A stretch of DNA of 64,000 bases from Candidatus Altimarinota bacterium (GTDB taxonomy: Bacteria > Patescibacteriota > Gracilibacteria > 1-14-2-50-48-13): NCBI GenBank assembly GCA_046314355.1, contig JBKBWQ010000001.1, positions 1,280,001 through 1,344,000 of the forward strand. Reading direction: 5' to 3'. A program made the position numbers and the translations under genes. Below the pieces are notes generated by a model that was not told the origin of the DNA, did not search any database, and saw only the letters and a program-made list of their open reading frames with translations. How positions within the stretch are numbered: the first letter of the stretch is position 1; every line of letters begins with the position of its first letter. Positions 6,697 to 35,600 of this stretch are shown here, in pieces.

Positions 6697-7506
6697 ATGA
6701 AACTCTCTATTCTTTGTCTGAACTTAAGCATCCCCGGATACAGTACGACAGAAAAATATAATGCAATGCTTGAGTCATTCTATATGTACCCGCCCACTGT
6801 AGAATTTGAAATAATTATGGTAGATAACGGATCAAGCGATCATGCTTTGGAATCCTTAAGATCAAGATGGGGAGATAAAATCACTCACTATATACAGCTT
6901 CCAAAGAATGTTGGTTTTCAGAGAGGAAATAATGAAGGAGTGAAAAGAGCATCAGGGGAATACCTGGTATTCATGAACCCTGATATTACGATACAAAAAG
7001 GCACGATGGATGCACTGGTACAGTATATGGATAAACATCCTGAGGTGGCAGTCACAGGTCCTCAGCTTATTTATCCAAGCGGAGCAGTGCAGGATTCTTA
7101 TCGGCGTTTTATGAGACCGCTGGATTTTCTGATCAAAAGGATCAAACCTCTGCACAGAATCCCATACTTTAAAAAGCGTATGATGCAGTACCTGCTCTGG
7201 AAGATAGATAATACAAAAGTGCAGGAGATCGACTGGATTGTAGGTGCGTTCATGATTGTCAGGAAGAGTATGTTTGATGCAATAGGAGGATATGACAACC
7301 GTTTCTTTCTTTTTAATGGAGATACAGATCTCTGCAGACAGTTCTGGGAAAAGGGGTGGAAGGTCATCTATAATCCGATGATCACAGCTGGACATAAGGA
7401 ATCGCGCCTCTCAGGAAATGGATTCTTTGACGCATTGTTTAAGAAGACTGCATGGATACATGTATTTGATATGGTAAAGTATTTTTTGAAGTGGGGGATT
7501 AAGTAA
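6697..7506 (+). CDS. Glycosyltransferase family 2 (WbbL/rhamnosyltransferase-like)
   Basis: VDNGSSD, NVGFQRGNN, MNPD, WIVGAFM, GGYDNRFFLF..DTDLC. Confidence 0.9.
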   Translation: MKLSILCLNLSIPGYSTTEKYNAMLESFYMYPPTVEFEIIMVDNGSSDHALESLRSRWGDKITHYIQLPKNVGFQRGNNEGVKRASGEYLVFMNPDITIQKGTMDALVQYMDKHPEVAVTGPQLIYPSGAVQDSYRRFMRPLDFLIKRIKPLHRIPYFKKRMMQYLLWKIDNTKVQEIDWIVGAFMIVRKSMFDAIGGYDNRFFLFNGDTDLCRQFWEKGWKVIYNPMITAGHKESRLSGNGFFDALFKKTAWIHVFDMVKYFLKWGIK

Positions 7507-9002: not shown

Positions 9003-10436
9003 ATGCTACAGCTACAAAACGTTACAATCAGCCATGGAGTACAGACATTTATTGAAAATGTTTCTTTTTCCATGGAAGGAAAAGCCAAGAAACGTATCGC
9101 TCTCTTGGGGGCAAACGGTACGGGAAAATCTTCTCTTTTGAAGGTGCTTGCGGGAATAGATGAACCTGCTGGAGGATCCCGTTCTCTGAGCCGTGAAATG
9201 ATCGGCTACGTGCCGCAGGAGCTGGTGATAGATGAACAGGTGAAATTGGGAGACTATATGGAGACTCTACTGGTGGAATCATGGATGAGCTACCGGATCG
9301 TGATCGCCCTGGATGAAGTGGGACTTGCAGAGGATATTTTAGAAAAGAATATCGGTATGCTCTCGGGCGGTGAAAAAGTACGTTTGAGTATTGCGATCGC
9401 TCTCCTCTCTGAACCTACGATCCTGCTGCTCGATGAGCCGACCAATCATCTCGATGATCAGGGCTTACTTTGGCTTGGTGAATTCCTGACTAGCTTCTCA
9501 GGATCTCTCCTTATGATTACTCATGACCGTGCTTTTATCAATACGTATCTGACAGAGCTTTGGGAGATCGATCTGCAGTATAAAGTGCTGCAGAAATTTA
9601 CTGGAAACTATGATGATTTCTTACTCCAGAAGGAAAAACTCTACGAAATAGCAATGCGAGACTATAAGCGTTACCAGGATCAGATAGATGAGGCAGCACT
9701 TTGGCTGAAGGAAAATGAATTTCATCCGAAGTTCAGATTCTCCGACCGTGTGATGGCAAAGAAAAAGCAGCTTGCAGATCTATTGGAAAAAAGACCTCCT
9801 GAGCCTATCCTCCGCAAATCTGTAAAATTCCTGAAGCCTCTCCAGACGAGTGAACAGAGACTTTTGAAACTCAATATTCAGGAAAAGAAGATAGGAGGAA
9901 ATATTATTCTGAAAGACAAAGAGATCATTATCCGTGTGGGAGACCGTATCCGGATCATGGGTGAAAACGGCAGCGGAAAGACTACGCTTCTCAGGATCCT
10001 TGCGAAGGCAGATAAGGATTTTACAGGTGAATATTCAGATGGAGTAAATCTCAAACTTGCATACTTGGAGCAAGGCGTCTCTCTTCCGCAGGATAAAAAA
10101 ATGCTGGATTATGTCCTGGACACAGTATACGGAGACCATACTTCACTCCGTCGTATGCTTGCGCATTATCTATTCAATGACAATCAGATGGATCAGAAGA
10201 TAGGTAACTTGAGCTTTGGTGAACAGAAACGTCTAGAACTTGCGATCATGCTTCAGCAAAAGCCAAATCTCCTGCTGATGGATGAGCCGACGAATCATCT
10301 TGATATCTTTGCCAGAGAGGATCTGGAGAAATTCCTCATTGAGGAGGCACCGAGTATTATTGTGATTACTCATGACGCGTATTTTGCTGATAAGATAGGA
10401 TTTACAAAGGAGATTGTTCTTGAAAAGGGCAGATAG
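9003..10436 (+). CDS. ABC-F family ATPase
   Basis: Two NBDs (GANGTGKS/LSGGE/LLLDEPTNHLD and GENGSGKT/LSFGE/LMDEPTNHLD); no TM segments. Confidence 0.92.
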   Translation: MLQLQNVTISHGVQTFIENVSFSMEGKAKKRIALLGANGTGKSSLLKVLAGIDEPAGGSRSLSREMIGYVPQELVIDEQVKLGDYMETLLVESWMSYRIVIALDEVGLAEDILEKNIGMLSGGEKVRLSIAIALLSEPTILLLDEPTNHLDDQGLLWLGEFLTSFSGSLLMITHDRAFINTYLTELWEIDLQYKVLQKFTGNYDDFLLQKEKLYEIAMRDYKRYQDQIDEAALWLKENEFHPKFRFSDRVMAKKKQLADLLEKRPPEPILRKSVKFLKPLQTSEQRLLKLNIQEKKIGGNIILKDKEIIIRVGDRIRIMGENGSGKTTLLRILAKADKDFTGEYSDGVNLKLAYLEQGVSLPQDKKMLDYVLDTVYGDHTSLRRMLAHYLFNDNQMDQKIGNLSFGEQKRLELAIMLQQKPNLLLMDEPTNHLDIFAREDLEKFLIEEAPSIIVITHDAYFADKIGFTKEIVLEKGR

Positions 10437-11481: not shown

Positions 11482-11814
11482 TCATGAGATGTTTTGGAGT
11501 TCCACTAATGTTTGTTTCATGTGTTTATTGAGTTCAGACAAATTTAAAGTTACTTTCTCATTCTTTTCATAAATACAAACTGGTGTAAGAAGATCATTAC
11601 GTTTTAGCAGAAAAATATATACTCTGTAGCCAGCTGATTTACCTCTGTTGTTTTTCTTTAAACGTATTTTGTAAATATTCCCAGAAATCTTTGCTGCAAG
11701 CAGTACATTAAATGTCTCAAAGGTTTTAATAAAGTTCTCTTTTAGAGCAGCATCTTTTTTACACAGTATTCTCAGCTGTTTCTTGAAATGCTGCGTAATA
11801 AAGACTTTATACAT
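11482..11814 (-). CDS. Type II toxin, RelE/HigB superfamily
   Basis: FKKQLR..., YKIRL...GKSAGYRVY...IYEKNEK pattern; overlaps the antitoxin stop. Confidence 0.8.
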   Translation of the reverse strand: MYKVFITQHFKKQLRILCKKDAALKENFIKTFETFNVLLAAKISGNIYKIRLKKNNRGKSAGYRVYIFLLKRNDLLTPVCIYEKNEKVTLNLSELNKHMKQTLVELQNIS

Positions 11815-12052
11815 CTGCAAGCTGAGCTTTGAGTGAAGTAGGTATTTTTCCTTTTTTATCCAACTGAATTAGTATATCTGAGAGTTCTTGGGAGAGCGCA
11901 TTAAGTTTTAATAGCTCACTATTCCTATGGTATTTATAGAATTTGATGAGAAATCTGAAAAACTCTGCTTTGCTGTCATAACCCTCATCCTGCATAAAGG
12001 TTTTTAACTCCTGATCGAAGGTTTCGTTCACTTTGAAAAATATTGAGGACAT
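11807..12052 (-). CDS. Cognate antitoxin, RHH/CopG-like
   Basis: SIFFKVN...EGYDSKAEFFRFLI; immediately upstream of the toxin. Confidence 0.75.
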   Translation of the reverse strand: MSSIFFKVNETFDQELKTFMQDEGYDSKAEFFRFLIKFYKYHRNSELLKLNALSQELSDILIQLDKKGKIPTSLKAQLADV

Positions 12053-13683: not shown

Positions 13684-13731
13684 TAAAAGAGCTGTCATTG
13701 ATGACAACTCTTGTGTGGAAGATCATAGCCC

Positions 13732-14037
13732 TCACTGGATCTTTGAGAGAAAAAAATAGAGCGCTTTCCGCTCTGCATCTAGTTTTTTCTCATCCAATGG
13801 GAGTGATTTTGTTTCCTCTTTTTGTTTTAGACTAAGTAGAAAAGGCGGTATGGGTGCAGCATGAAATTCGAGAATACAGGAAGAGAATTTGAAGAGATAC
13901 TGATACGGAATCTTTTCTTCACCACTTTCTATAGACTCGAGATAAGTAGGTCCCAACTGCATTCTGAATGCTGCATCAAGGACATCAAGTCCAAGTGCTT
14001 CCCGTAAAGCCTTTAGTTCTTCAGCGAGAGTTTTCAT
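13732..14037 (-). CDS. XRE-family helix-turn-helix protein
   Basis: LAEELKALREALGL...AA......YLESIESGE; AAAGGAG SD ahead of ATG 14037. Confidence 0.75.
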   Translation of the reverse strand: MKTLAEELKALREALGLDVLDAAFRMQLGPTYLESIESGEEKIPYQYLFKFSSCILEFHAAPIPPFLLSLKQKEETKSLPLDEKKLDAERKALYFFLSKIQ

Positions 14038-14186
14038 TTTGTATTCTCCTTTTTTATATATTTTTTGTGAGTATAGTAAGTACACTGCTGAATGTACAAC
14101 AGATCGGCTGTGAAAGAGGCAAATATGACAGAGTTTTGACCCATCAGACTTGCTGAAAATACTATTTATGAGATAAGAACTATTTT

Positions 14187-15488
14187 GTGGAAATCGATCA
14201 TAATCCGGAACTAGATCGCGCACTTCATCTGCTGGATAATACTTCAAGTCACGTGATCCTCACAGGTCGCGCGGGTACAGGTAAATCCACGCTTCTTACC
14301 TATTTTCGTCTACATACGAAAAAGAAAGCTGTGGTACTTGCGCCAACTGGTATTGCTGCGGTGAATGTGCAGGGAGAGACGATCCATTCTTTTTGCGGAT
14401 TCAAGCCGAGTGTCACGCTTTTTTCTGCTTTGAAAAGGGCAAAGAATCTCAAGAAAAAGGAGAGGGAAATGTATAAGGCGGTCCAAATGATAGTAATTGA
14501 TGAGATCTCGATGGTGAGAGCTGATCTTCTGGATATAGTGGATAGATTTCTCAGAAAAGCAGTGGGAGATGAAGCTCCTTTTGGAGGAAAACAGATGGTA
14601 TTTATAGGAGATCTGTATCAGCTTCCTCCAGTCCTGCGTGAGGAAGATAAGGAAGACTATGCGGTATTTTATAAGACTCCATATTTTTTCAGCTCCCAGG
14701 TCATCAAGGAAATGCTCTGGTCTGCATTCCCGCCAGAACACGTGGAGCTGACACGCATCTACCGTCAGGAGCAGCAGGAGTTTATAGAACTGCTCAATGC
14801 TATCCGTGATGGATCCTGTACACAAAGAGACATAACGAAACTTAACGAACGCAAGATACAGCTCCCGCCTGAATCAAATGCTATTCATCTCACTGCCACC
14901 AATAAGCAGGCCGATATAGAAAATCAGACAAGGCTTGATGATCTCGACGAGGCTCTGGAAATGTATCAGGCGAAGGTCACTGGAGATATTGATGAACGTA
15001 TTTTTCCTGTAAAAGATGTGCTGGAGATCAAAAAAGGCGCACGGATCATGATGACCAATAACGAGACAGACGGCAGGTGGCAGAATGGATCACTAGGCAC
15101 AGTAATAAATTGTGATGAAAACGGGATAGAAGTACACCTGGATAACGGACGAATCTGTGAGATAGATCCTTTTAGATGGGACATGTATCATACGGTGCTG
15201 GATGAAGAAAAGGGACAACTGGAGCAGAAATCTGTAGGATCATTTACACAGTATCCCATCAAACTTGCCTGGGCGATCACTATTCACAAGAGTCAGGGAC
15301 AGACCTTTGATGAAGTGCTCATAGATCTCGGATGGGGAGCCTTTGCGGAGGGTCAGACTTATGTGGCGCTATCCCGGTGCAGGACTTTTGAAGGGATTTA
15401 TCTCAAGAAAGCACTGCAGATGAGGGATGTGAAAGTGGATTTGAGGATCGGGGCTTTTTTTGAAGTATTGAAAATGAAGAAGATATAA
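14187..15488 (+). CDS. PIF1/RecD-like SF1B helicase
   Basis: GRAGTGKS, APTGIAA, TIHSF, IDEISMV, GDLYQLPPV, AITIHKSQGQT, YVALSR. Confidence 0.93.
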   Translation: MEIDHNPELDRALHLLDNTSSHVILTGRAGTGKSTLLTYFRLHTKKKAVVLAPTGIAAVNVQGETIHSFCGFKPSVTLFSALKRAKNLKKKEREMYKAVQMIVIDEISMVRADLLDIVDRFLRKAVGDEAPFGGKQMVFIGDLYQLPPVLREEDKEDYAVFYKTPYFFSSQVIKEMLWSAFPPEHVELTRIYRQEQQEFIELLNAIRDGSCTQRDITKLNERKIQLPPESNAIHLTATNKQADIENQTRLDDLDEALEMYQAKVTGDIDERIFPVKDVLEIKKGARIMMTNNETDGRWQNGSLGTVINCDENGIEVHLDNGRICEIDPFRWDMYHTVLDEEKGQLEQKSVGSFTQYPIKLAWAITIHKSQGQTFDEVLIDLGWGAFAEGQTYVALSRCRTFEGIYLKKALQMRDVKVDLRIGAFFEVLKMKKI

Positions 15489-15531
15489 AAAAGCCCGGGA
15501 AGAGCTTTCCCGGAAGTTCTGCATACACATA

Positions 15532-15999
15532 TTATTTCTGTATGCTTTTTTGTGTGTTTATCAATTTGTATACATCTTCATATACCTCATCGACGCAACG
15601 TAGTGTGAAATACGCCACAGCACCCTTTACAAGTAATGCCATAGCAATACATAGAAGAAATATATTCCCCTCAGTTCTATAGAGTAACATTCCTATAAAG
15701 CTGAGAAAAGCAGAAACGCCTCCAAATCCTCCTATAACTATAATGTCACTAAATATACCAACCATATACTCTCTGGATGACACGCCATCAGTGTCCAACC
15801 TTATAAGCATAGTAACAGGTCCTCTTTTCCAATGAAGTGTTGCCACAAGCGTGTAGAGAGCTCCCATTGGAACGATATTTTTAAGCGCACTATATGTAAA
15901 ATGCTGAGCATTCATGCCCTCATAGAGACATATAATATCGGGAGTCAAGACTCCTAAGAACAATATCAGTACTTCAAAGTATGAAGTATTCTTCATCAC
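15532..15999 (-). CDS. Orphan ~4-TM membrane protein (SD-led cassette A)
   Basis: Hydrophobic segments; AAGGAGG SD; own promoter. Confidence 0.7.
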   Translation of the reverse strand: MMKNTSYFEVLILFLGVLTPDIICLYEGMNAQHFTYSALKNIVPMGALYTLVATLHWKRGPVTMLIRLDTDGVSSREYMVGIFSDIIVIGGFGGVSAFLSFIGMLLYRTEGNIFLLCIAMALLVKGAVAYFTLRCVDEVYEDVYKLINTQKSIQK

Positions 16000-16032
16000 T
16001 ATTTTCCTCCTTCTTTTTATTTTAGTGTTCGC

Positions 16033-16060
16033 AAAATACTCTAAATAAATAATTTGTCAA
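16033..16060 (-). promoter_or_regulatory. Sigma70-like promoter
   Basis: TTGACA-16bp-TATTTT. Confidence 0.6.
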
Positions 16061-16178
16061 AATTTCTACAGGAAAAGGCATGTATAGAGGTCATGCAAAA
16101 ACATTATTTTTACCTTTCTCGAATGTACAGACTTACGATATACTTCTTCTGTTATTCTATATCTTCTCTTAAGTTCTC

Positions 16179-16586
16179 ATGTCCCAAGACTTCCTCATAT
16201 TACTGCTGGTAACACTTACATCACTCCTTGTCTGCTTTATATTTTCAGTCGTCATCGGTCTCAAACGAAGAAAACATAAGATCGCTGCACCTGCTATGGT
16301 AGGACACCCTGAGGTAGAAAGTGCGATACGCGTGCATTACAATACTATTGAGCAGATCATTCTCTTCCTCCCATCTCTCTGGATGTTCTGGTATCTCGTA
16401 TCTCCACTTTGGGCAAATATCCTGGGTATGATCTGGATAGTAGGACGAGTGCTCTACGCTCTCGGATACTACAACTCTCCGCTTAAAAGATATCCTGGTC
16501 ATCTTTTGACTCTTCTTCCGCTCTTTATCCTCATGTTTGGAAGTATGTTTGTCATCATCGCGCAGCTTGTAGGTATGCGGATGTAA
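16179..16586 (+). CDS. MAPEG family membrane protein
   Basis: RRKHKIAAPAMVGHPEVESAIRVHYNTIEQ ... GRVLYALGY. Confidence 0.9.
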   Translation: MSQDFLILLLVTLTSLLVCFIFSVVIGLKRRKHKIAAPAMVGHPEVESAIRVHYNTIEQIILFLPSLWMFWYLVSPLWANILGMIWIVGRVLYALGYYNSPLKRYPGHLLTLLPLFILMFGSMFVIIAQLVGMRM

Positions 16587-16600
16587 GAGAGTATATGTAG

Positions 16601-16633
16601 AAAAGGATCTCTAGAGATAGAGATCCTTTTTTT
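16601..16633. terminator. Bidirectional intrinsic terminator
   Basis: aaaaggatctcta-gaga-tagagatccttttttt. Confidence 0.85.
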
Positions 16634-16643
16634 GTACTGTGTT

Positions 16644-17099
16644 TTAATTCATATTTTTGTAATATTGAGTCTGCCGCTCAGTTCTTATGTACTGAAAGAG
16701 GTAGAGTGTAACCATGGCTGCCTGGGTAGTAAAACTGAACCTCAGATGCCAGATCTTATCTAAATGCATCTCAGGATCTGCATATGTCCCCGCAGTGTAA
16801 GCTGCATAGCTGATCAGCATGCCGCATACGGCAGCACAGCCAGCAGATACGAATACTGATCTCTTAAAGCGCTTCCAAACAGCTGGGCTTAAGCCATAGC
16901 GTTTGTTGAGCATCTGATAGAGCATGGTCTTCACCGCAACTTCCATCATAAAGACTAAAGTTACTGTATAGGGTATACCTGCTATAAGACATATAAGGAG
17001 TGGAAAGCCTACCTGTCCCATATAAAATGATAAGGTATGCAGTGCCAGTAATCCTAGTACCAATATTGTTGTTTGCATGAACATTAACCCCAATTCCAT
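16644..17099 (-). CDS. Orphan ~4-TM membrane protein (SD-led cassette B)
   Basis: Hydrophobic segments; AAAGGAGG SD; own promoter. Confidence 0.7.
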   Translation of the reverse strand: MELGLMFMQTTILVLGLLALHTLSFYMGQVGFPLLICLIAGIPYTVTLVFMMEVAVKTMLYQMLNKRYGLSPAVWKRFKRSVFVSAGCAAVCGMLISYAAYTAGTYADPEMHLDKIWHLRFSFTTQAAMVTLYLFQYIRTERQTQYYKNMN

Positions 17100-17133
17100 A
17101 TTGTTTTCCTCCTTTGTTTGTATGTGTGGAGGT

Positions 17134-17161
17134 AAAGTAGTCTTTTTATAAGATTTGTCAA
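17134..17161 (-). promoter_or_regulatory. Sigma70-like promoter
   Basis: TTGACA-16bp-TACTTT. Confidence 0.65.
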
Positions 17162-17321
17162 TTGATGTGAGTGGAGATAAGAAATATATAATAAAAACAG
17201 AGATTTCCCCTCAAAAGAAGTCTCTGTTTTATTTATGTACATATGATTACTATTATACTGTAGTTTTACAGTATAACAAAGAAAAAAGAGACCTTTTGAG
17301 AAGTCCCTTTGAGCATTTGTA

Positions 17322-17828
17322 TTATTTTAACGAATTTTTAGTTTTATGTATTTTAATTTTTTCCTCAAGATTTTCCAATGTGTGTATCACGTTGTATATA
17401 ATGAGGACGATGCTGAGATGGGTGATGATAAGGTAGATGAAGCTGCCGAAGTATACTCCGTACTTTACGCAAAGCCCGCCTTCATAGGCACATACAGCAA
17501 CCACTGCTCCGAGGGTGCCAGTAGTTATAATGCTATATACAAGATTATCCATGTAGAAAGTTTTTTCCTCCTCAGTAGGCGCCCTACGCTTGGTCTGCTC
17601 TTCGTAGAGCTGCCTCCAGGTATCTACTTCAAAGATACCTACAAATACTAAAGCGCATACAAATCCTAGAGAGCAAAAGTCCATAGGTTCATATTCTAAA
17701 GATGATATTATCCCTAAAAAGAATAAGAAAGCAGTACCGAAGATGAAACAATATTTGCATAAGTCGGCTTTGTACTTTACCTCCGGTGAGATAGCAGAAT
17801 ATTTTTCATAGATCTCTTCCTCTGTCAT
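17322..17828 (-). CDS. Orphan ~4-TM membrane protein (SD-led cassette C)
   Basis: Hydrophobic segments; AAAGGAGG SD before ATG 17828. Confidence 0.7.
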   Translation of the reverse strand: MTEEEIYEKYSAISPEVKYKADLCKYCFIFGTAFLFFLGIISSLEYEPMDFCSLGFVCALVFVGIFEVDTWRQLYEEQTKRRAPTEEEKTFYMDNLVYSIITTGTLGAVVAVCAYEGGLCVKYGVYFGSFIYLIITHLSIVLIIYNVIHTLENLEEKIKIHKTKNSLK

Positions 17829-17865
17829 ACACCCCTCCTTTTTTTCAAAAATATTTGTTTTGCAT

Positions 17866-17893
17866 AGCATAGAGATAAGCAGAAAGATGTCAA
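17866..17893 (-). promoter_or_regulatory. Sigma70-like promoter
   Basis: TTGACA-16bp-TATGCT. Confidence 0.65.
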
Positions 17894-17955
17894 TGGTTTG
17901 AAATGGAGATGTGGAGAAGTATCAAATGCAGTTTTAAAGTGGGATACTGAACTCA

Positions 17956-17983
17956 TTGACAAATGTAAAAATATGTCTATAAG
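17956..17983 (+). promoter_or_regulatory. Sigma70-like promoter
   Basis: TTGACA-16bp-TATAAG. Confidence 0.6.
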
Positions 17984-18017
17984 TTGTTTAAAAAAATATT
18001 AGAAAGGAGAAATAAAA

Positions 18018-18629
18018 ATGACAACAGTAGATGGAAAGACATTGATCTCTATGGTGCTGGAAAATGGAATGGATCATAAAAAGTTTCTGGAACTCATAGA
18101 TACGGGATGCAGGGGAAATGATATCCTGACCATGCCTATCTCTCTAGAATATCTGGAAGCGGAACTGATCCTGGTACAGGAGCTCATAGAACAGAGTAAT
18201 ATGAACTTCTCCATCAAGCAGGAGAAAGTAAAAGCATTTACTTTGAAGACAAATGAGTACGAGAAAGTTTTGCTCTCTAGTCCGAGTCTAGAGCAAAAGG
18301 CATTTGCAGGAAAAATCATACGATTCTTCCGCCTGCTCGTACGCGGAGTGACGGTCAAACCGGTATCTGATCAGAAGGATCTGTTGGGATATGAAGCGTT
18401 CAATCTCTATATGGCTTGCAAGTGCTATCTGGAAGTACAGGCGATCTATAATGCATATCAAAGGACTCTCGCGATCTGTCCCGAAGAATTGCTCGCAAGG
18501 GCAATGGTAAGTGATATCGTAGCTCTGTATAAAAGACTGCGTGAGACAAAATTAGGAATCGTAGAAATGTCTTGGCGGCATTGCCTTACAATCGATAGAT
18601 TGGTGAGGATGATGGAGTCTGGACGGTGA
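18018..18629 (+). CDS. Orphan soluble alpha-helical protein (SD-led cassette D)
   Basis: 203-aa ORF; AAAGGAG SD; promoter upstream and hairpin plus T-run at ~18637-18663. Confidence 0.7.
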   Translation: MTTVDGKTLISMVLENGMDHKKFLELIDTGCRGNDILTMPISLEYLEAELILVQELIEQSNMNFSIKQEKVKAFTLKTNEYEKVLLSSPSLEQKAFAGKIIRFFRLLVRGVTVKPVSDQKDLLGYEAFNLYMACKCYLEVQAIYNAYQRTLAICPEELLARAMVSDIVALYKRLRETKLGIVEMSWRHCLTIDRLVRMMESGR

Positions 18630-18767
18630 AAGGAATGAGGGGGCAGGGATGCTCCTTTTTTTTGTAGATTGGTAAAAAGAAGATGAAATATTATTTTAGC
18701 TGTAAATAAATCTATGCAGAAGTAAAATGTAGTCTAAGAAAGAAAAACTATACTTCACCTCACATAC

Positions 18768-19124
18768 ATGTCACAAGATCCAAGGTTTCAAAAAGTTATT
18801 GATCGTATCAATAACTTTAGAGAAGCACGAGAATGGAAACAGTTCCACAGTCCAAAGAACTTAGCGATGTCTCTTGCTATGGAAGCTAGTGAGGTAATGG
18901 AGTTTTTTCAATGGTGTTCTACGGAAGAAGCACGGGAAGTAGTAAAGAAAAAAAATGATGCTTTGAGTGAAGAACTAGCAGATGTAGGTATCTATCTCCT
19001 TCAGCTTTGTGAAGAGTCTGGAGTGGATTTACTCTCGGCTATAGAAAGAAAAATGGATATTAATGAGAGCAAATATCCAGTAGAAAAAGCTAAAGGAAAT
19101 GCTACAAAATATAACGAACTATAA
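18768..19124 (+). CDS. MazG-like nucleotide pyrophosphohydrolase (dCTPase-type)
   Basis: FREAREWKQFHSPKNLAMSLAMEASEVME...EELADV...KMDINESKYPV. Confidence 0.93.
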   Translation: MSQDPRFQKVIDRINNFREAREWKQFHSPKNLAMSLAMEASEVMEFFQWCSTEEAREVVKKKNDALSEELADVGIYLLQLCEESGVDLLSAIERKMDINESKYPVEKAKGNATKYNEL

Positions 19125-19125
19125 T

Positions 19126-20970
19126 ATGATTCTCTACAAAGCAACGGCAGGTGAGTTTTGTGAAGCAGTGGATGATAATAAGATTGCAGATTTAGTGGAG
19201 AAGACTTTTGCTGTAAAGCTTGGACATCGAGTAAATCAAAGTCAGAAAAGAGCATTCATCAATTCTCTTCCAGCTATGGAGAGAGTTCTCAGACGTGCTG
19301 CTGTTCCTAGTGATTGTGGAATTTTGATTGAATATATTATCCCTCTAACTTCTAATCGTATCGATTTTGTGATTGCAGGGGAAGACAGTATGGGTAAGAA
19401 AAATGTAGTAATCATCGAATTGAAACAGTGGGACTTGGCTCAAAGCACTGATATGGATGGAGTTGTAAAAACTTTTATTGGTGGAGGAAATATAGAGACT
19501 ACACATCCAAGTTACCAAGCAAATTCATATAAAACTTTTCTGGGAGATTTTAATGAGCATATTTTTAACGGAACTATAAGAGCATATGCCTGTGCATATC
19601 TTCATAATTATCCCCTCCATAATCCTGAACCATTGAAGGCGGAGATTTATCAAAATGTGATCGAAGAAGCTCCTCTTTATTTGAAAGATGATGTCTCTCT
19701 TCTTGCAGATTTTATACAGAAGCATGTGGGAAAAGGAAAAGGCATGAATATTTTATATGAAGTGGATTCAGGAAAGATTCGTCCAAGTAAACAGCTTATT
19801 GATTATGTTTCTAGTATGTATCAAGGAAACCAGGAGTTTGTGCTGCTTGATGAACAGAAGATTGCTTATGAAACTGCGAAGAATATAGCAAAAAAGAATG
19901 AAGGGAAATCCGTAATCATTATCAATGGTGGACCTGGAACTGGTAAATCAGTGCTTTCAATGAATCTTCTTGGAGGACTTCTCAAGGAGAATCTCAATGT
20001 GGCTTTTGTAGCTCCAAATGCTTCTTATCGCGATACTCTTATTGATAAATTGGCACAGAATGAAAGAAGGACTAGATTGTATCACTTATTCAAAGGATCT
20101 GCAGGATTTACACATGAGAACGCCGATATGTTTGATGTACTTGTAGTAGATGAAGCGCATCGTTTGAAGAAGCGTGGCGCTTATCAGTATAAAGGTGAGA
20201 ATCAAGTGGAGGATCTTGTGAAAGTTGCAAAGACTACGATCTTCTTTATTGATGATGATCAGATGATTCGTCCTGACGATATTGGATCTGTAAAAGAGAT
20301 CAGAAGAGTAGCTGAAAAGTTTGGTGCACAGATCTCTGAGATAGAGTTAGTAGCTCAGTTTCGATGTGCGGGTGCTGAAGGGTATGTGAATTGGGTGAAT
20401 GATATTTTACAGATTAAAGAGACTGCAAACTTTGATGGATGGGATCAGAAGGACTTTGATTTCAAAATCTTTGATAATCCAAATGAGATGCGAGCGGCTA
20501 TTCAGAAGAAGCATGAGGAAGGATATAATGCTCGAATGCTTGCTGGATATGCATGGAAGTGGACAGGGCAGAAAGATGGTAATGCGAATGGTGAAGTGAA
20601 TGATGTGGTGATTCCGGTGTTTGACTTTAGTATGCCGTGGAATAGTCGAAAGGTGGGGACTACTTGGGCGAGCGATCCGAGAGGGATTCATCAGCTTGGA
20701 TGTGTACATACTTCTCAGGGATTGGAGTTTGATTATGTGGGAATTATTGTGGGAAAAGATCTAAGTTTTGACCCTGTTAGTTTAAAGTACACGACTGATT
20801 GGAGTGAATATAAGGATGCTACGGGAAAAAAGGGATTGAAAGATAATCCTGAGGAGTTGAATCGGTTTGTGAGGAATATTTATAGGGTATTAATGACGAG
20901 GGGGAAGAAGGGGTGTTATGTGTATTTTATGGATGAGGAGGTTAAAAAACAGTTTAAGGATATTAAATAG
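19126..20970 (+). CDS. DUF2075 family nuclease-helicase
   Basis: N-terminal EY.IP..RIDF..IIELKQW nuclease-like motif; GGPGTGKS; VDEAHRL; QFRCAG; HTSQGLEFDYVG; YRVLMTRG. Confidence 0.9.
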   Translation: MILYKATAGEFCEAVDDNKIADLVEKTFAVKLGHRVNQSQKRAFINSLPAMERVLRRAAVPSDCGILIEYIIPLTSNRIDFVIAGEDSMGKKNVVIIELKQWDLAQSTDMDGVVKTFIGGGNIETTHPSYQANSYKTFLGDFNEHIFNGTIRAYACAYLHNYPLHNPEPLKAEIYQNVIEEAPLYLKDDVSLLADFIQKHVGKGKGMNILYEVDSGKIRPSKQLIDYVSSMYQGNQEFVLLDEQKIAYETAKNIAKKNEGKSVIIINGGPGTGKSVLSMNLLGGLLKENLNVAFVAPNASYRDTLIDKLAQNERRTRLYHLFKGSAGFTHENADMFDVLVVDEAHRLKKRGAYQYKGENQVEDLVKVAKTTIFFIDDDQMIRPDDIGSVKEIRRVAEKFGAQISEIELVAQFRCAGAEGYVNWVNDILQIKETANFDGWDQKDFDFKIFDNPNEMRAAIQKKHEEGYNARMLAGYAWKWTGQKDGNANGEVNDVVIPVFDFSMPWNSRKVGTTWASDPRGIHQLGCVHTSQGLEFDYVGIIVGKDLSFDPVSLKYTTDWSEYKDATGKKGLKDNPEELNRFVRNIYRVLMTRGKKGCYVYFMDEEVKKQFKDIK

Positions 20971-22263: not shown

Positions 22264-23772
<1,509 letters not shown>

Positions 23773-23775
23773 AGA

Positions 23776-24351
23776 TTACCTTACTTGATGATCTAGAGAG
23801 ACTTTGCGCTTATACACTTCGCTGAAATATGCTCTTAGATCCTCGGCTGTTACCTGAGCAATCTCTGCTTTATCATAGAGCTGAATAATCCAATCATTTG
23901 AGAAGTATAAACAAATAACTTCTACAAGTTCGATAAAAAGATTTGAAAGAATCTGAATCTGTTCATAAGTGCTCTTTGCTTCGGGAAGTTCCTGTACAAG
24001 AGATTGTATAGCTGATTTCCGCGTCTCATTGCGCATATTTTTTTGTACTGTGAGATAGTCTACACAGGCAAAAAGTGCATCCTGGTGCCTTAGGATATTA
24101 TAAGTATCCAGATAATCCTCTAGAGATTTCCTGGTAATTTTAAACTCTCTAGGGTTTTTCGGAAACTTTCCAATACGAGTTAAGGTATCCTTCATGAGAG
24201 AAGCGTCATATTGATTTTCCCTTGAAACGAAAGACGTGAATTCTTTAAAAAACGCATAGTGCTGTGTACAAAACTGCAGTGTGAGCAGCTGATTCTTTGT
24301 ACAAATCTCATCAATGGTCTCTTGTCTTGGGTAATAGGGAAGCTCGTGCAT
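23776..24351 (-). CDS. Hypothetical alpha-helical protein
   Basis: ~191-aa ORF; no recognised motif. Confidence 0.6.
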   Translation of the reverse strand: MHELPYYPRQETIDEICTKNQLLTLQFCTQHYAFFKEFTSFVSRENQYDASLMKDTLTRIGKFPKNPREFKITRKSLEDYLDTYNILRHQDALFACVDYLTVQKNMRNETRKSAIQSLVQELPEAKSTYEQIQILSNLFIELVEVICLYFSNDWIIQLYDKAEIAQVTAEDLRAYFSEVYKRKVSLDHQVR

Positions 24352-24458
24352 AGGTACATACAAAATTTAGTGCCAGAATACTAATTAATATTTAGTATAA
24401 AGCAATGTTTTTTTATATATACAAGCACTCAAGAAAGAAAAATATCACACTCTATTTT

Positions 24459-31989: not shown

Positions 31990-32140
31990 TGTCCCTCTAC
32001 GCCAAAAAGAACTAGAAACTTATAGTTCAGGTGTAGGCTACGAGGGACATTCTTCGCTGTATATAATAAAAAACTTCATTCATGAAGTTTCATTTCTTTC
32101 TGGCTGTGCCATTCGTAGCTTCGTGAGAAGCGAAGAATGG
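31990..32140. repeat. Nested imperfect palindromes (REP-like) in the tRNA 3' trailer
   Basis: tgtccctc...gagggaca (31990-32049); cattcttcgct (32048-32058) / agcgaagaatg (32129-32139); aacttcat/atgaagtt hairpin between them. Confidence 0.65.
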
Positions 32141-32215
32141 TGGATCCAAAGGGACTCGAACCCTTGACCTCCTCGGTGCAAACGAGGCGCTCTAGCCAAA
32201 CTGAGCTATGGACCC
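32138..32215 (-). tRNA. tRNA-Ala(TGC)
   Basis: GGGTCCA acceptor stem with G3:U70, anticodon arm CCTCG-TTTGCAC-CGAGG, TTCGAGT T-loop, encoded CCA. Confidence 0.98.
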
Positions 32216-32221
32216 TAATTG

Positions 32222-32482
32222 TTACTGTGCTTCTATGCCTCGTGATGGTAGTACTGGTCGTGAGAAGACACTTTTTAGAAAGGCTTCAGCAGTACCAGTC
32301 ATGTAGATGAAGGAAGTGATGATGACCAAGATGCCTACTATCCGGATACCCATATAGGTACCTCCTGTGCCGAAAAGTTTTTCAGCCCAGCCCCATGTGC
32401 CGACCATAGGCCGTACCTGCATGTGATAGCGAATCATCAGGAAACCAATTCCCATTCCCAAGAGACCGATAAATATTCTCAT
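32222..32482 (-). CDS. Small 2-TM membrane protein
   Basis: MRIFIGLLGMGIGFLMI...G..GWAEKLFGTGGTY..IRIVGILVII; probably co-transcribed with the tRNA. Confidence 0.75.
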   Translation of the reverse strand: MRIFIGLLGMGIGFLMIRYHMQVRPMVGTWGWAEKLFGTGGTYMGIRIVGILVIITSFIYMTGTAEAFLKSVFSRPVLPSRGIEAQ

Positions 32483-32625: not shown

Positions 32626-35600
32626 TTAGAGAGAGCGGCTGAGAGCTGCTTCTTTCTTTCTTTTGTCTCTTCTCCACCAGATATATCCAGTAAGAGAAGT
32701 GGCAATAGCGAGAAGTCCAAGATTGAACCAAAGGTTATCAAATGGATTATCTCCTGCTGATGCTTTCAGTGCTGTTGTCTCTACTCGTTTGAAAGGGAAT
32801 GTAGTAGTTGTAGACTTCAGATGAAGCTTCGTATTCTCTGCAGTAAGGTAGACTGTATGATCTCCGAACTCAAGTTCCCGAGGCGCCTTTGTGGCAAAGT
32901 TTGCCTGAGGAGTATCTGCAATCAATGATGATGAGAAGATGAGTGATCTAAATGTAAGTTCTACGATAGAGTCATAGAGCGCTTCTCCTCGTACTACTGG
33001 CTGTGCACTAGTAGTAGTTACAAGAGCTGATTTACTAGTTTGCTCATTTGGTAGAATCTTATGGTCATCAAGATGGGTTACGCTTGGTACCGGAAGTTCA
33101 ATAGTCTGGTCGACGATGACTGAGATACCGCTTGTCTCCTGGATAAGGTTTCCTGCAGAGTCTTTTACTGCTGCATAGATTGTATAAGATCCGTTATCAA
33201 GATCAGGAGTCATAAGAAGGAATTTACCTTGATCATCCGTAGTGACACTTCCGAGGAAGAAGAGTTCCTTCGATCCTGTAGGCTGCATATAGACAGCGAC
33301 CACTGTATTTGGATGAGCTGTGACACCCTTCACAAGGATATTTGCTGAAGTGGAGATATCACCGCTGTTAAGGTTTGTAAACTTCATAACCTTTGGTGCT
33401 TTACCATCATTTGGTACAAGCGGATCAGTACCGAGGTCAAGGACCTCTTCACCATCTGAGATTCCGTCTCCATCTGTATCCTTGATAAGCGGGTTCGTAC
33501 CGTAGAAGTACTCAAGTGCATCTGATGTACCGTCTCCATCTGTATCTCGTGTTCCGAGAGTGACGGCTGCGGATTTCTTAAAGAGTCCGTTTTCATCAAG
33601 ATCATTTGGGAAGTACTTTCGTACCCATGCATCGTCGATACCGTCTCCATCAAAGTCTGCAGGATAATTCTGTTTATCAAGCGGATCTGTGTTAGATGAG
33701 AGGACCTCCTGTCCATCAGAGAAGCCGTCCTTGTCAGTATCTATTGTAAGTGGATTTGTCTTATACTTCTTTACCTCAAGACCATCGGAGAGTCCATCAG
33801 CATCACTATCCTGGTTCTTTGGATCTGTATGGAATTTGATCACTTCATCGTAATCTGAGAGACCGTCTCCGTCAGTGTCTGCATCGCTTGGATTTGTACC
33901 AATTCTTGACTCTTCACCATCGGTGAGTCCGTCTTTGTCGGCATCCTTATTTGGGCTAGCGATTCCGATCTGATTAAAGTACATCTTTTCCCATGCATCA
34001 GAGAGACCATTACCGTCTGTATCTGTAGCGGATTCTGGAAGAAGGGAAGTAAGTGTAATTGTCTCAGGGACTACAAGAGGCTTGTCTGCCTTTTCTTCCA
34101 CTGTAGTATAAGTGATCTCTCCAATACGGAGTTCTTCTATATCAGGGTAAGTAAAGGTATCGATCTTATCATCATCAGCCTCAGAGAGTACTGGTTCGAT
34201 AGTCAGTGTACATTCAGATGCGCTCGCCTTGAGAGGCTTCTTGATTCTACATGCATCTCCGATTCCATTTCCGAGACTATCTCTCTGATCAGGATTTGGT
34301 ACTGTAGGACAGTTGTCTATCTCATCAGGGATACAATCCTGGTCAAGGTCGATACTGTACCGGGCATCAAATGGGAAGGAATCTTCTCTATTGATAATAC
34401 CGTCGTTATCGATATCAGAGTCACTTGCATCAGGGAGACCGTCTTTATCTCGATCTCTATCCTCTGCTGGGATTGTGAGGTTATAGCCAGGTACTGGACA
34501 ATAACTTCCTCCTCTTTCTGTAACCACATCCACATCCTTATCATTTTCAGCCTGAGTCTCAGATTCAGGAACGTCTACTATAGGCTCCACTGCGTTGATA
34601 TTTGTATTCTTTGTTGGTGGTGTACATGCATCACCTCCACTTGTGGTAGTGGTAATAGTATCGTATCCAACAAGGATATGCAGCGGCGGCATAGGGAACC
34701 GTCCGCAGAATTGGAATGTAGGTGAGACTACCACACAGATATCTCGATCTGGCTGTGGGAAATCAATGTAACGAGGGACGAGAACGGTATCTGTAGTTCC
34801 AGCTATCGGATCTCCTGGGATACACTGTTCTCCAGGACCTCCAAGTGTTCCGCTTCCTCCTCCTAGTATACCACCAGCTCCACTTCCAGCTCCACCTGAT
34901 CCTCCGCCGTAGCCGGATCCTCCGCCGTAAAGCCTTCCGCCTCCGCCAATTCCTACACAATAGTATTCACCATTGGACATATAACAACTTCCTCCATCAT
35001 AGATATCTCCGCCGCTTTGCTTGATAGTCTCAAGAGCTGAACCGTAGATACACTGTTTGAATTGATCTGAGTCCTGACCATACTGGGTAAGAAGATCTCC
35101 ACAGCTTCCGCCGTCAACGTCAGCAACGCCCTTCTTTGTAAGCTCTTCGATACCTTCGATGTTTCCTGGATCTCCTACTGTACACTGATCATCTCCAGGA
35201 GTTCTAATATCCATTTCGATAGTACTTTCCTTACATGGTGATCCATCCTCTGCGACACCTACGATCTTGATATGGAAAGTAGAATCCTTGTCGAGATCAT
35301 ACAAGAAGATTCTATCAGGGTATGATCCAAGGATAATACCTTCTGAAGTCTGACCACCCTTACTAAGATACATGATCTGGTTTGCGAGTGTCTTTGTGTC
35401 ACTGCCTTTCCAGTTGACTGGAACTGCATATCGCACATCTTCACTACATGAATTGCCAACTGATACATTTTCCAAGTTATTCACCTTTATATACTTTGTA
35501 GGTGTAGCAGCTCTCATATCCCGAGCTGGTAGTCCACATGTCGTACCACCAGTTGATGCTGGCTTCTGAGGCATTGGTACACAGCTAGTCTGTGATGATC

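Follow-up and report, generated by a model that had tools for sequence, protein, structure and literature searches.

A Shine-Dalgarno-led minority of mostly lineage-specific genes in a genome whose other genes mostly start without Shine-Dalgarno sequences

A window of 64,000 nucleotides (G000:C1:1280001-1344000), situated on the 1.62-Mb main contig (C1) of a 1.69-Mb bacterial genome (G000; 38% GC, 98% complete), was examined in the present study. Between 13.7 and 18.7 kb the window holds a cluster of five small genes, each preceded by a strong Shine-Dalgarno (SD) sequence, and it is with these genes and with the genome-wide SD-led minority to which they belong that we are concerned. The initial annotation of the window had drawn attention to AAGGAG(G) words ahead of the five starts, and reading of the sequence bears this out: all five have a longest match of 7-8 nucleotides (nt) to the tail of the genome's own 16S ribosomal RNA (rRNA), with a spacer of 5-8 nt. 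Our genome-wide list of SD-led genes includes only these five from the window, four found automatically and the fifth, at 17828, by hand. Unless a contig is named, positions are those of the window, and the five genes are also referred to by the position at which they start. The features of the cluster are listed below, with product lengths in amino acids (aa); all genes were identified as open reading frames (ORFs).

13687-13712, minus strand: terminator-like hairpin 3' of gene 1, 11 pairs, found by scan; it also adjoins the end of a glyoxalase gene on the opposite strand
13732-14037, minus strand: SD-led gene 1, 101 aa, weak XRE-type helix-turn-helix (HTH), with sub-threshold Pfam matches to HTH_31 and HTH_3; start region aaaaaAGGAGaatacaaaATG
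14046-14051, minus strand: SD of gene 1, AAGGAG, 8 nt ahead of ATG; the 7-nt AAAGGAG pairs with the 16S tail at -9.3 kcal/mol
14070-14098, minus strand: promoter-like site of gene 1, TGTACA-17-TATACT (9/12), with an inexact -35, from the consensus promoter scan
15494-15514, minus strand: terminator-like hairpin 3' of M1, found by scan and common to the convergent PIF1 gene
15532-15999, minus strand: SD-led gene 2 (M1), 155 aa, about 3 hydrophobic spans, orphan; start region agAAGGAGGaaaataGTG
16006-16012, minus strand: SD of M1, AAGGAGG, 6 nt ahead of GTG; -12.6 kcal/mol
16033-16060, minus strand: promoter of M1, TTGACA-16-TATTTT, from pattern match and consensus scan
16598-16633, bidirectional: hairpin between the MAPEG gene and M2, common to both, folding at -22.3 and -16.8 kcal/mol on the two strands
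16644-17099, minus strand: SD-led gene 3 (M2), 151 aa, about 3 hydrophobic spans, orphan; start region cAAAGGAGGaaaacaatATG
17108-17115, minus strand: SD of M2, AAAGGAGG, 8 nt long and 8 nt ahead of ATG; -12.1 kcal/mol
17134-17161, minus strand: promoter of M2, TTGACA-16-TACTTT, read from the sequence by pattern match
17285-17310, minus strand: terminator-like hairpin 3' of M3, found by scan
17322-17828, minus strand: SD-led gene 4 (M3), 168 aa, 4 hydrophobic spans, orphan; start region aaAAGGAGGggtgtATG
17834-17840, minus strand: SD of M3, AAGGAGG, 5 nt ahead of ATG, identified by eye, its energy not being in the computed list
17866-17893, minus strand: promoter of M3, TTGACA-16-TATGCT, from pattern match and consensus scan
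17956-17983, plus strand: promoter of S, TTGACA-16-TATAAG; an alternative pattern reading has the same -35, an 18-bp spacer and TAAGTT
18002-18009, plus strand: SD of S, GAAAGGAG, 8 nt long and 8 nt ahead of ATG; -11.7 kcal/mol
18018-18629, plus strand: SD-led gene 5 (S), 203 aa, soluble, predicted all-helical, orphan; start region aGAAAGGAGaaataaaaATG
18637-18658, plus strand: terminator-like hairpin 3' of S, found by scan

Pairing energies with the 16S tail range from -9.3 to -12.6 kcal/mol at four of the five genes (17828 excepted). As the initial annotation had it, an exact TTGACA stands 16 bp from a -10-like hexamer of the form TAnnn(T/G) at four genes (TATTTT, TACTTT, TATGCT and TATAAG), with 14037 the exception; the consensus promoter scanner lists two of these four sites, each with 10 of 12 matches. 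The hairpin that had been reported downstream of each gene was recovered at four genes by the scan and at the fifth (16598-16633) by folding. Judged from their sequences, the products might be a small HTH regulator, three small polytopic membrane proteins and a helical soluble protein, an assignment that we offer as a guess. The Pfam scores of gene 1 fall short of the respective cut-offs (HTH_31 24.5 bits, cut-off 27; HTH_3 22.8 bits, cut-off 23), the hydrophobic spans of M1-M3 number 3-4 per protein and are regularly spaced, and a single-sequence AlphaFold model of S is all-helical with a predicted local distance difference test score (pLDDT) of 57.9. No similarity of the five proteins to one another or to other SD-led proteins was detected.

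Many Gracilibacteria read TGA as glycine. That alternative code was rejected for this genome in favour of code 11, as TGA ends 98 of 1362 ORFs and is absent inside a 6307-codon ORF. The organism is probably a bacterium of the Candidate Phyla Radiation (CPR) related to Gracilibacteria, going by its genome traits, by the best named match of its elongation factor EF-Tu (a Candidatus Gracilibacteria metagenome-assembled genome, 77%) and by ribosomal protein uL30, which was not found in the 98%-complete genome. Genomes of relatives in its class measure 0.7-2.0 Mb. All words sampled from the stretch occur in one sequencing run (DNA, labelled hot springs metagenome), from which the genome may have been assembled; no RNA run is listed for the stretch. 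The accessible text of an earlier study describes all CPR bacteria as being without uL30 (PMC9297842).

The gene set comes from a crude home-made caller rather than a published gene finder, and its 1362 ORFs take up 87% of the genome; SD frequencies agreed with those from a second caller that works with dicodon scores. Choosing starts by coding potential trims N-termini and under-counts SDs, and a tolerance rule with permuted-motif controls was used instead. The single 16S gene ends in ...GGATCACCTCCTTTC, which is a canonical anti-SD (GGAUCACCUCCUUUC). Between 89.7 and 90.7% of starts are without a 4-mer SD in the zone from -13 to -3, as against about 78% (78.2%) of internal in-frame ATGs; put the other way, SDs of at least 4 nt precede about 10% of starts and about 22% of internal controls, so that SD-like words are under-represented at starts. 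The 6-mer SDs run in the opposite direction, at 4.6% of first-ATG starts versus 0.3% of internal ATGs. At 464 positionally unambiguous starts the native context has 2-9% G at -21 to -1 and 63% T at -1. C is also raised at -2 in the native leaders, a T-rich stretch lies around -16 to -12, and several leaders have pyrimidine words resembling CCTCC. G002, a genome from another genus of the same family (1.27 Mb, 48% GC) that served for comparison throughout, has the same G-depleted, T(-1) start context and the same scarcity of SDs. Leaders of this native, SD-less type precede the genes for EF-Tu, bS6 and bS18, and the neighbours PIF1 (14187), MAPEG (16179) and MazG-like (18768) are SD-less as well, in agreement with what had been noted of other genes examined in the window. 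The five genes stand out because the rest of the genome starts without SD, from G-depleted leaders with T at -1.

Beyond the window, SD motifs precede a small set of genes far more often than their controls do. Of 1401 AAGGAG occurrences, 68 stand 4-10 nt ahead of a start that lies close to the 5' end of an ORF with 60 aa or more, and 19 other permutations of the hexamer give 0.6-2.3%. By a dicodon criterion, which accepts a start whose suffix score lies within 5 units of the ORF's best, counts ahead of a plausible start were 62/1401 for AAGGAG, 39/937 for AGGAGG and 15/680 for GGAGGT, with a median of 0.8% for permuted-hexamer controls. SD motifs thus exceed permuted controls 5-8 fold; a motif test without the 5'-end constraint was too noisy. 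The union of the SD-led sets is 79 ORFs, to which the 17828 gene, missed by the caller, was added by hand to give 80. Class-wide, the distance from GGAG to the start is most often 6-8 nt, which is what functional SDs should show. The cluster in the window, with five SD-led genes in a stretch of eight, is the genome maximum (P about 0.015, permutation), and clustering is otherwise modest, with 16 SD-led pairs within two genes of each other against 7.7 expected (P=0.0014).

The initial annotation had proposed a second gene class with an expression grammar of its own, and the SD-led genes do differ from the other 1283 in promoter, monocistrony, length and Pfam matches. Their median length is 177 aa versus 248 aa, and their dicodon score per codon is 0.10 versus 0.16, lower also when matched for length. 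A TTGACA-N15-18-TAnnnT site lies within 150 nt of 20% of SD-led genes and 3.1% of the others, a difference of about 7-fold; when only genes with 80 nt or more of upstream spacer are counted, the figures for TTGACA are 33% and 5%, respectively. About 15 further SD-led genes, including rpsU, have a -35 with one mismatch. Monocistron-like genes make up 88% of the class compared with 65% elsewhere, and the A-rich leader word AAATAAAA is found at 16/80 SD-led genes and 20/1283 others. Pfam matches (E<=0.001) were obtained for 22 of 60 SD-led proteins, scanned from the 75 outside the window, and for 14 of 20 length-matched random non-SD proteins (Fisher P=0.018). The promoters of the class are the organism's own strong type, not a foreign one, because the rRNA operon itself is preceded by TTGACT-17-TAAGAT.

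Several SD-led loci elsewhere in the genome are recorded here in their own right. At G000:C1:1598337-1600241 (minus strand) three consecutive orphans of 202, 177 and 171 aa each have TTGACA-N16/18-TAnnnT, a 'aaataaaaatta'-like leader and an SD, forming a second cluster built like that of the window. Three genes at G000:C1:1408036-1410913 (plus strand) each have an AGGAGG(T) SD of their own and are a candidate imported operon; their products are an F420-0:gamma-glutamyl ligase-like protein, an archaeal-type AdoMet (S-adenosylmethionine) synthetase (PF01941) and a P-loop protein. Two small SD-led proteins consist of a single transcription-related domain, a 209-aa protein with the RNA polymerase alpha C-terminal domain only (C1:117560-118189, minus strand) and a 107-aa protein with sigma-70 region 4 only (C1:1195430-1195753, plus strand), and both may modulate transcription.

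The age of the class was gauged by searching all proteins against G002 (E<=1e-5), young meaning here younger than the split from the genus of G002. Homologs were found for 13 of 80 SD-led genes versus 734 of 1283 others (P=3e-13), and for 6/59 versus 284/649 when only products below 250 aa are compared. Several of the 13 are suspected false SD calls; rpsU, at 70% identity, is a true one. Seen from the other side, 1.7% of conserved genes (13/747) are SD-led versus 10.9% of non-conserved ones, and SDs are accordingly rare among the conserved genes, where the initial annotation held that their being common would have spoken against a separate class. A synonymous-codon score that is independent of amino-acid content averages 0.137 for conserved genes, 0.116 for non-conserved genes without SD, 0.079 for non-conserved SD-led genes and -0.159 for an off-frame control. 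The SD-led ORFs are thus coding but fit native codons worst, since their score is above the off-frame control and is the lowest of the three groups. Within the cluster, M2, M3 and S have a GC content at third codon positions (GC3) of 0.43-0.48, the genome value being about 0.31, and synonymous-codon scores near zero (M2: GC3 0.45, score -0.016).

Searches for relatives of the five products returned very little. S matched only itself among 1.84 billion representatives searched with full HMMER, had no relatives in genome contigs or viral contigs, and gave no usable match in an Atlas search. M1, M2 and M3 matched only themselves in a search of 5.8 billion proteins; M1 and M2 had no Pfam or PHROG match, and M3 had a weak match to phrog_24948 (3.6e-5) and no viral relatives. 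The HTH protein of gene 1 has a single weak, domain-level match among 150 genomes of the class. A distant blastn search with the whole 5-kb stretch found no match in plasmids and one of 77 bp in phages, inside PIF1, and the DNA between 12 and 21 kb, compared with 40 relatives, matches, besides a few short pieces, only at PIF1 and glyoxalase. A single donor region, whether phage or Firmicute, was not found. For the earlier suggestion that these are recently captured cassettes, the few homologs in G002 and the lowest codon fit of the three groups speak in favour of recency; since no donor was found, capture itself is something that we infer.

Within this SD-poor genome one conserved gene has an SD stronger than any other:

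G000:C1:435210-435419, minus strand, outside the window: rpsU, encoding ribosomal protein bS21 (loci L150-L173 in relatives)

Its leader, GAAAGGAGGTGA, has 12 contiguous nt complementary to the 16S tail (-20.3 kcal/mol) and ranks first in the genome, the next strongest SD having 10 nt and -15.8 kcal/mol. The rpsU SD of G002 likewise ranks first, with 13 nt and -22.1 kcal/mol. SD enrichment in G002 is otherwise almost nil (AAGGAG 29/1123 versus a control rate of 2.0%), and its next two strongest SDs precede small ORFs without a homolog in G000. A bS21 match was obtained in 24 of 40 relatives, and the rpsU SD is strong or extended in about 9-10 of these 24. In one relative (G034) the 16S tail is a variant, GGACCACCCCTTAA, and it is matched by the rpsU leader TAAGGGGTGG-aaat-ATG over 10 nt at -19.1 kcal/mol. 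The relatives with other variant tails (G010, G019 and G028) showed no rpsU SD, which leaves G034 as the one clear case of covariation; this compensatory change argues that translation of rpsU in the class depends on pairing with the 16S tail.

In Bacteroidia, as set out in the accessible parts of four reports, bS21, bS18 and bS6 together keep the 16S tail in place, and it is ribosomes without bS21 that translate rpsU (PMC7797042, PMC9976891, PMC13000453, PMC13000457). The signatures given there are Tyr54 and a less basic C-terminal part in bS21, Phe50, Asn56 and Gln58 in bS18, and a C-terminal helix with Trp100 and Arg103 in bS6 (PMC7797042, PMC9976891). Aligned to Escherichia coli, the bS21 of G000 has Met at 54 and Tyr at 57 and 58 (the chain from Flavobacterium johnsoniae lay outside the alignments), and by our own count its C-terminal part has 10 basic and 3 acidic residues. 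The Bacteroidia signatures are not seen in this bS21, and any sequestration mechanism here need not be homologous. Of the other two proteins, both SD-less, bS6 (C1:1240418-1240906, plus strand) has 162 aa with a long charged C-terminal tail past the Pfam domain and bS18 only 68 aa, sizes that bear on whether the 30S platform differs in this lineage.

On this evidence we consider it rather likely that the SD-led class represents the youngest layer of the gene pool, acquired or newly arisen and equipped with self-sufficient signals, the older genes being SD-less. The five genes of the cluster would be separately transcribed accessory genes, each read from its own promoter and laid out on a common unit plan, in which a putative sigma-70-type promoter is followed by about 25-45 nt of A-rich leader, an SD of 7-8 nt, an ORF for 101-203 aa and a terminator, own or shared; gene 14037 departs from this plan in its inexact promoter-like site. 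For translation, their SDs would pair in the ordinary way with the anti-SD of the organism's own 16S tail. Newcomer genes may keep strong and complete signals, being presumably unable to rely on the diffuse native start context, and the anti-SD itself would be retained in the lineage by the dependence of rpsU on it through an extended SD, as in Bacteroidia. What the sequence shows is the motifs and their excess over chance, the properties of the class, its scarcity in G002 and the rpsU SD with its covariation; horizontal acquisition or recent origin, transcription and translation, and the functions suggested for the proteins are inferred from it.

A number of observations weigh against this interpretation. 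Some 20-25 of the 79 SD-led candidates are expected by chance, leaving about 55-60, or about 4-5% of genes, and visibly internal sites are among the candidates in the core genes for HisRS, MurB, RmuC and a Na/Ca exchanger. At least one of the 20 length-matched controls in the Pfam comparison (L140) may itself be SD-led from a longer start, and T at -1 is still raised in the SD-led genes (33/80). Class means of GC (37.5 versus 38.6%) and GC3 (0.31 versus 0.32) are near those of the genome, which speaks against many members having come in very recently from distant donors. The accessory genes are for the most part not SD-led (549 of the 616 that have no G002 homolog), so that being young is not by itself enough for an SD. 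A native design, rather than many foreign ones, is suggested by the leader motif that the class shares and by its rRNA-like promoter, and for the four tested orphans, for which neither homolog nor donor was found, de novo origin or very fast divergence fits as well as horizontal origin does.

The most serious alternative, which we regard as possible without being probable, is that the class is a regulon gated by bS21. As in Bacteroidia, bS21 would normally help to keep the anti-SD on the 30S platform, with SDs ignored by ordinary ribosomes, and bS21-free ribosomes would expose the anti-SD and preferentially translate rpsU and about 60 other SD-led genes, the five of the window included, as a conditionally translated set; this is compatible with the genes being young. 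The anti-SD is canonical, yet SDs are rarer at starts than at internal sites, the rpsU SD is the strongest in both G000 and G002, and the variant tail of G034 is matched by its leader, a pattern that also underlies the Flavobacterium model (PMC7797042, PMC9976891, PMC13000453, PMC13000457, in their accessible parts). In the bS21 of G000, however, with Met at 54 and a basic C-terminal part, the Bacteroidia signatures are not seen. Loss of bS21 in F. johnsoniae brings a response from extended SDs only (PMC7797042, PMC9976891, accessible parts), whereas the five window genes have SDs of 7-8 nt; and the SD-led genes other than rpsU are not conserved in G002, unlike what would be expected of a long-standing regulon. 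A native design for high expression, with strong single-gene units carrying consensus promoter and SD irrespective of gene age, would account for the rRNA-type promoter, the shared leader motif, the near-native GC and GC3 and the canonical SD spacing. We judge it improbable, given that the highly expressed core genes for EF-Tu, bS6 and bS18 are SD-less, that codon adaptation is lowest in the class, whereas highly expressed genes usually show the reverse, and that the class is nearly absent from G002.

That the cluster is an artefact of chance ORFs and motifs, of binning contamination or of a chimeric assembly is very unlikely. The dicodon scores of the five are low (3.4-9.6), M3 was missed by the gene caller, and the genome has an estimated contamination of 3.4%, to which contigs C5, C8 and C9 with their GGAGGT-led ORFs could contribute. 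Against this, the five genes sit on the 1.62-Mb main contig and all sampled words occur in the one run that may be the assembly source; the motifs exceed permuted controls 5-8 fold and the synonymous-codon score lies far above the off-frame control; promoter, SD, ORF and terminator follow one another in the right order five times in 5 kb; and M1-M3 have 3-4 regularly spaced hydrophobic spans each. The three contigs mentioned (3-4 kb each, GC 40-41%) hold several GGAGGT- or AGGAGG-led ORFs and may be mobile-element fragments or binning contamination. Least credible of all, and close to negligible in our estimate, is the proposal of the initial annotation that the genes are built for a host-type translation apparatus, to be expressed in the cell of an epibiont's host by its SD-dependent ribosomes. 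What favours it is circumstantial: the organism is probably a member of the CPR and the signals are of a general bacterial type, and, for CPR bacteria, a symbiotic way of life is the general prediction (PMC6851277, accessible text). Against it stand the organism's own 16S tail, which pairs perfectly with these SDs, its own rpsU, which has the strongest SD, and its own rRNA promoter, which is of the same type; in addition, no transfer machinery is linked to the cluster, and three of the five products are small membrane proteins in which no export or injection signals were seen.

The cluster lies in a region that has no counterpart at the corresponding place in G002, and the further features of that region are as follows.

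7507-32137, unstranded: variable region of about 24.6 kb around the cluster, ending at the tRNA-Ala gene; its flanks are about 160 bp apart in G002
14187-15488, plus strand: interleaved SD-less gene for a PIF1/Dda-like helicase (Pfam PIF1 3.6e-31; GTG start; G002 homolog with 35% identity)
16179-16586, plus strand: interleaved SD-less gene for a MAPEG family membrane protein (Pfam MAPEG 1.2e-22; leader ...ttctcttaagttctcATG)
32138-32215: tRNA-Ala gene, the only match in Rfam and tRNA scans of the window

The left flank gene (6697-7506) matches G002 at C1:229293-230087 and the right flank gene (32222-32422) at C1:230250-230390. Between them the region also holds a RelE-like toxin, two ABC-F proteins, hydrolases, an SLH protein and a MazG/Schlafen-like helicase pair. 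Like islands beside tRNA genes, it combines the lack of a counterpart in G002 and an end at tRNA-Ala with a RelE-like toxin, helicases and hydrolases; it differs from them in that neither an integrase among its scanned proteins, nor a flanking direct repeat matching between the two ends (about 7.5 kb and 32.2 kb), nor one clear boundary was found, so that it cannot be classed as a tRNA-targeting integrative island. Integron gene cassettes were ruled out by the promoter that each gene has of its own, the lack of recurring repeats and the lack of an integrase. It is probably a flexible region grown by several events, since there is no clear single boundary and some of its genes have homologs elsewhere in the G002 genome.

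Several of the genes in and beside this region merit separate mention. The ORF of the RelE-family toxin (112 aa, Pfam 6.2e-9) overlaps a small upstream ORF of 81 aa (11482-12052, minus strand), and the two are likely a toxin-antitoxin pair within the flexible region. At 18768-20970 (plus strand) the gene of a MazG-like pyrophosphatase stands immediately ahead of that of a Schlafen-group-3/DUF2075-type helicase; the two are neighbours in G002 as well (C7:48421-50317) and are possibly a defence-type module. The two ABC-F paralogs (ribosomal-protection-like/EttA-like; 9003-10436 and 22264-23727, both plus strand) lie within 13 kb, both of them inside the flexible region, and both score under the equivalog cut-off. 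An (AGTA)n microsatellite of about 16 units (23711-23784) begins in the last codons of the second of them, spans its stop at 23727 and enters the 3' end of a convergent gene (23776-24363). Outside the flexible region, the 6307-codon ORF already mentioned is a single ORF at 32626-51549 (minus strand) with a good coding score and a weak, partial match in G002 (31%, over a short stretch).

TTGACA/TATAAT, AAAGGAGG and an intrinsic terminator are expression signals of Firmicute type. The motifs and spacings of the five genes are of that kind; the difference is that no Firmicute or phage homolog of the five was found and that these motifs recur at the organism's own rRNA promoter and rpsU. To our knowledge, Bacteroidia are the only group in which a mechanism has been given for SD-independent initiation beside a retained anti-SD; one gene there, rpsU, relies on its SD for autoregulation. 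The likeness to that system is considerable: as in F. johnsoniae (PMC7797042, PMC9976891, accessible parts), a canonical anti-SD is kept while SDs are avoided genome-wide, the extended SD of rpsU is the strongest in the genome, at about -20 kcal/mol in both, and, where a relative has a variant 16S tail, its rpsU SD has changed along with it. It differs in that the lineage here is CPR/Gracilibacteria-like, and that Tyr54 and the less basic C-terminal part of bS21 are not seen. Flavobacteriales, moreover, typically have rpsU as the sole strongly SD-led gene (PMC7797042, PMC9976891, accessible parts), whereas about 60 more are present here, and the start context consists of T at -1 and G-depleted leaders here but of upstream adenines there (PMC13000457, accessible text).

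Within the CPR, genomes of Candidatus Absconditabacteria (SR1) and Peregrinibacteria are described as SD-scarce in the accessible text of PMC10783764, and in this they resemble G000 and G002; that group is without a conserved CCUCC, which the present genome has. The same accessible text makes no mention of an SD-led minority class or of rpsU in CPR. SD scarcity in SR1 and Peregrinibacteria (PMC10783764) and the rpsU circuit in Bacteroidota are thus already in print, as far as the accessible parts of the sources go, and a full-text search, outside which lay supplements and subscription journals, found no report of an extended rpsU SD or of an SD-led accessory class in CPR.

That a CPR lineage, uncultured and distant, has the same genomic signature suggests that the age of the circuit, or the ease with which it evolves, has been underestimated. 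A bolder possibility, which we put forward tentatively and think rather doubtful, is that this lineage runs a Bacteroidia-like, bS21-gated anti-SD circuit, evolved independently or with other contact residues, which the flexible gene pool has taken over, such that about 60 young, lineage-specific genes with SDs and consensus promoters, the five of the window among them, would be translated mainly by bS21-free ribosomes, a specialised-ribosome channel apart from the SD-less native proteome. For annotation, a gene finder that has learnt the majority grammar will overlook SD-led genes or misplace their starts, as with M2, which has 144 aa in the public protein set and 151 aa when read from its SD-led start. 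Two start grammars exist side by side in one genome, about 95% of genes being SD-less and a few dozen, nearly all lineage-specific, being SD-led, which raises the questions of whether an SD-poor host filters or channels the expression of new genes through its anti-SD, and whether the presence of an SD may serve as a marker of gene age in such genomes.

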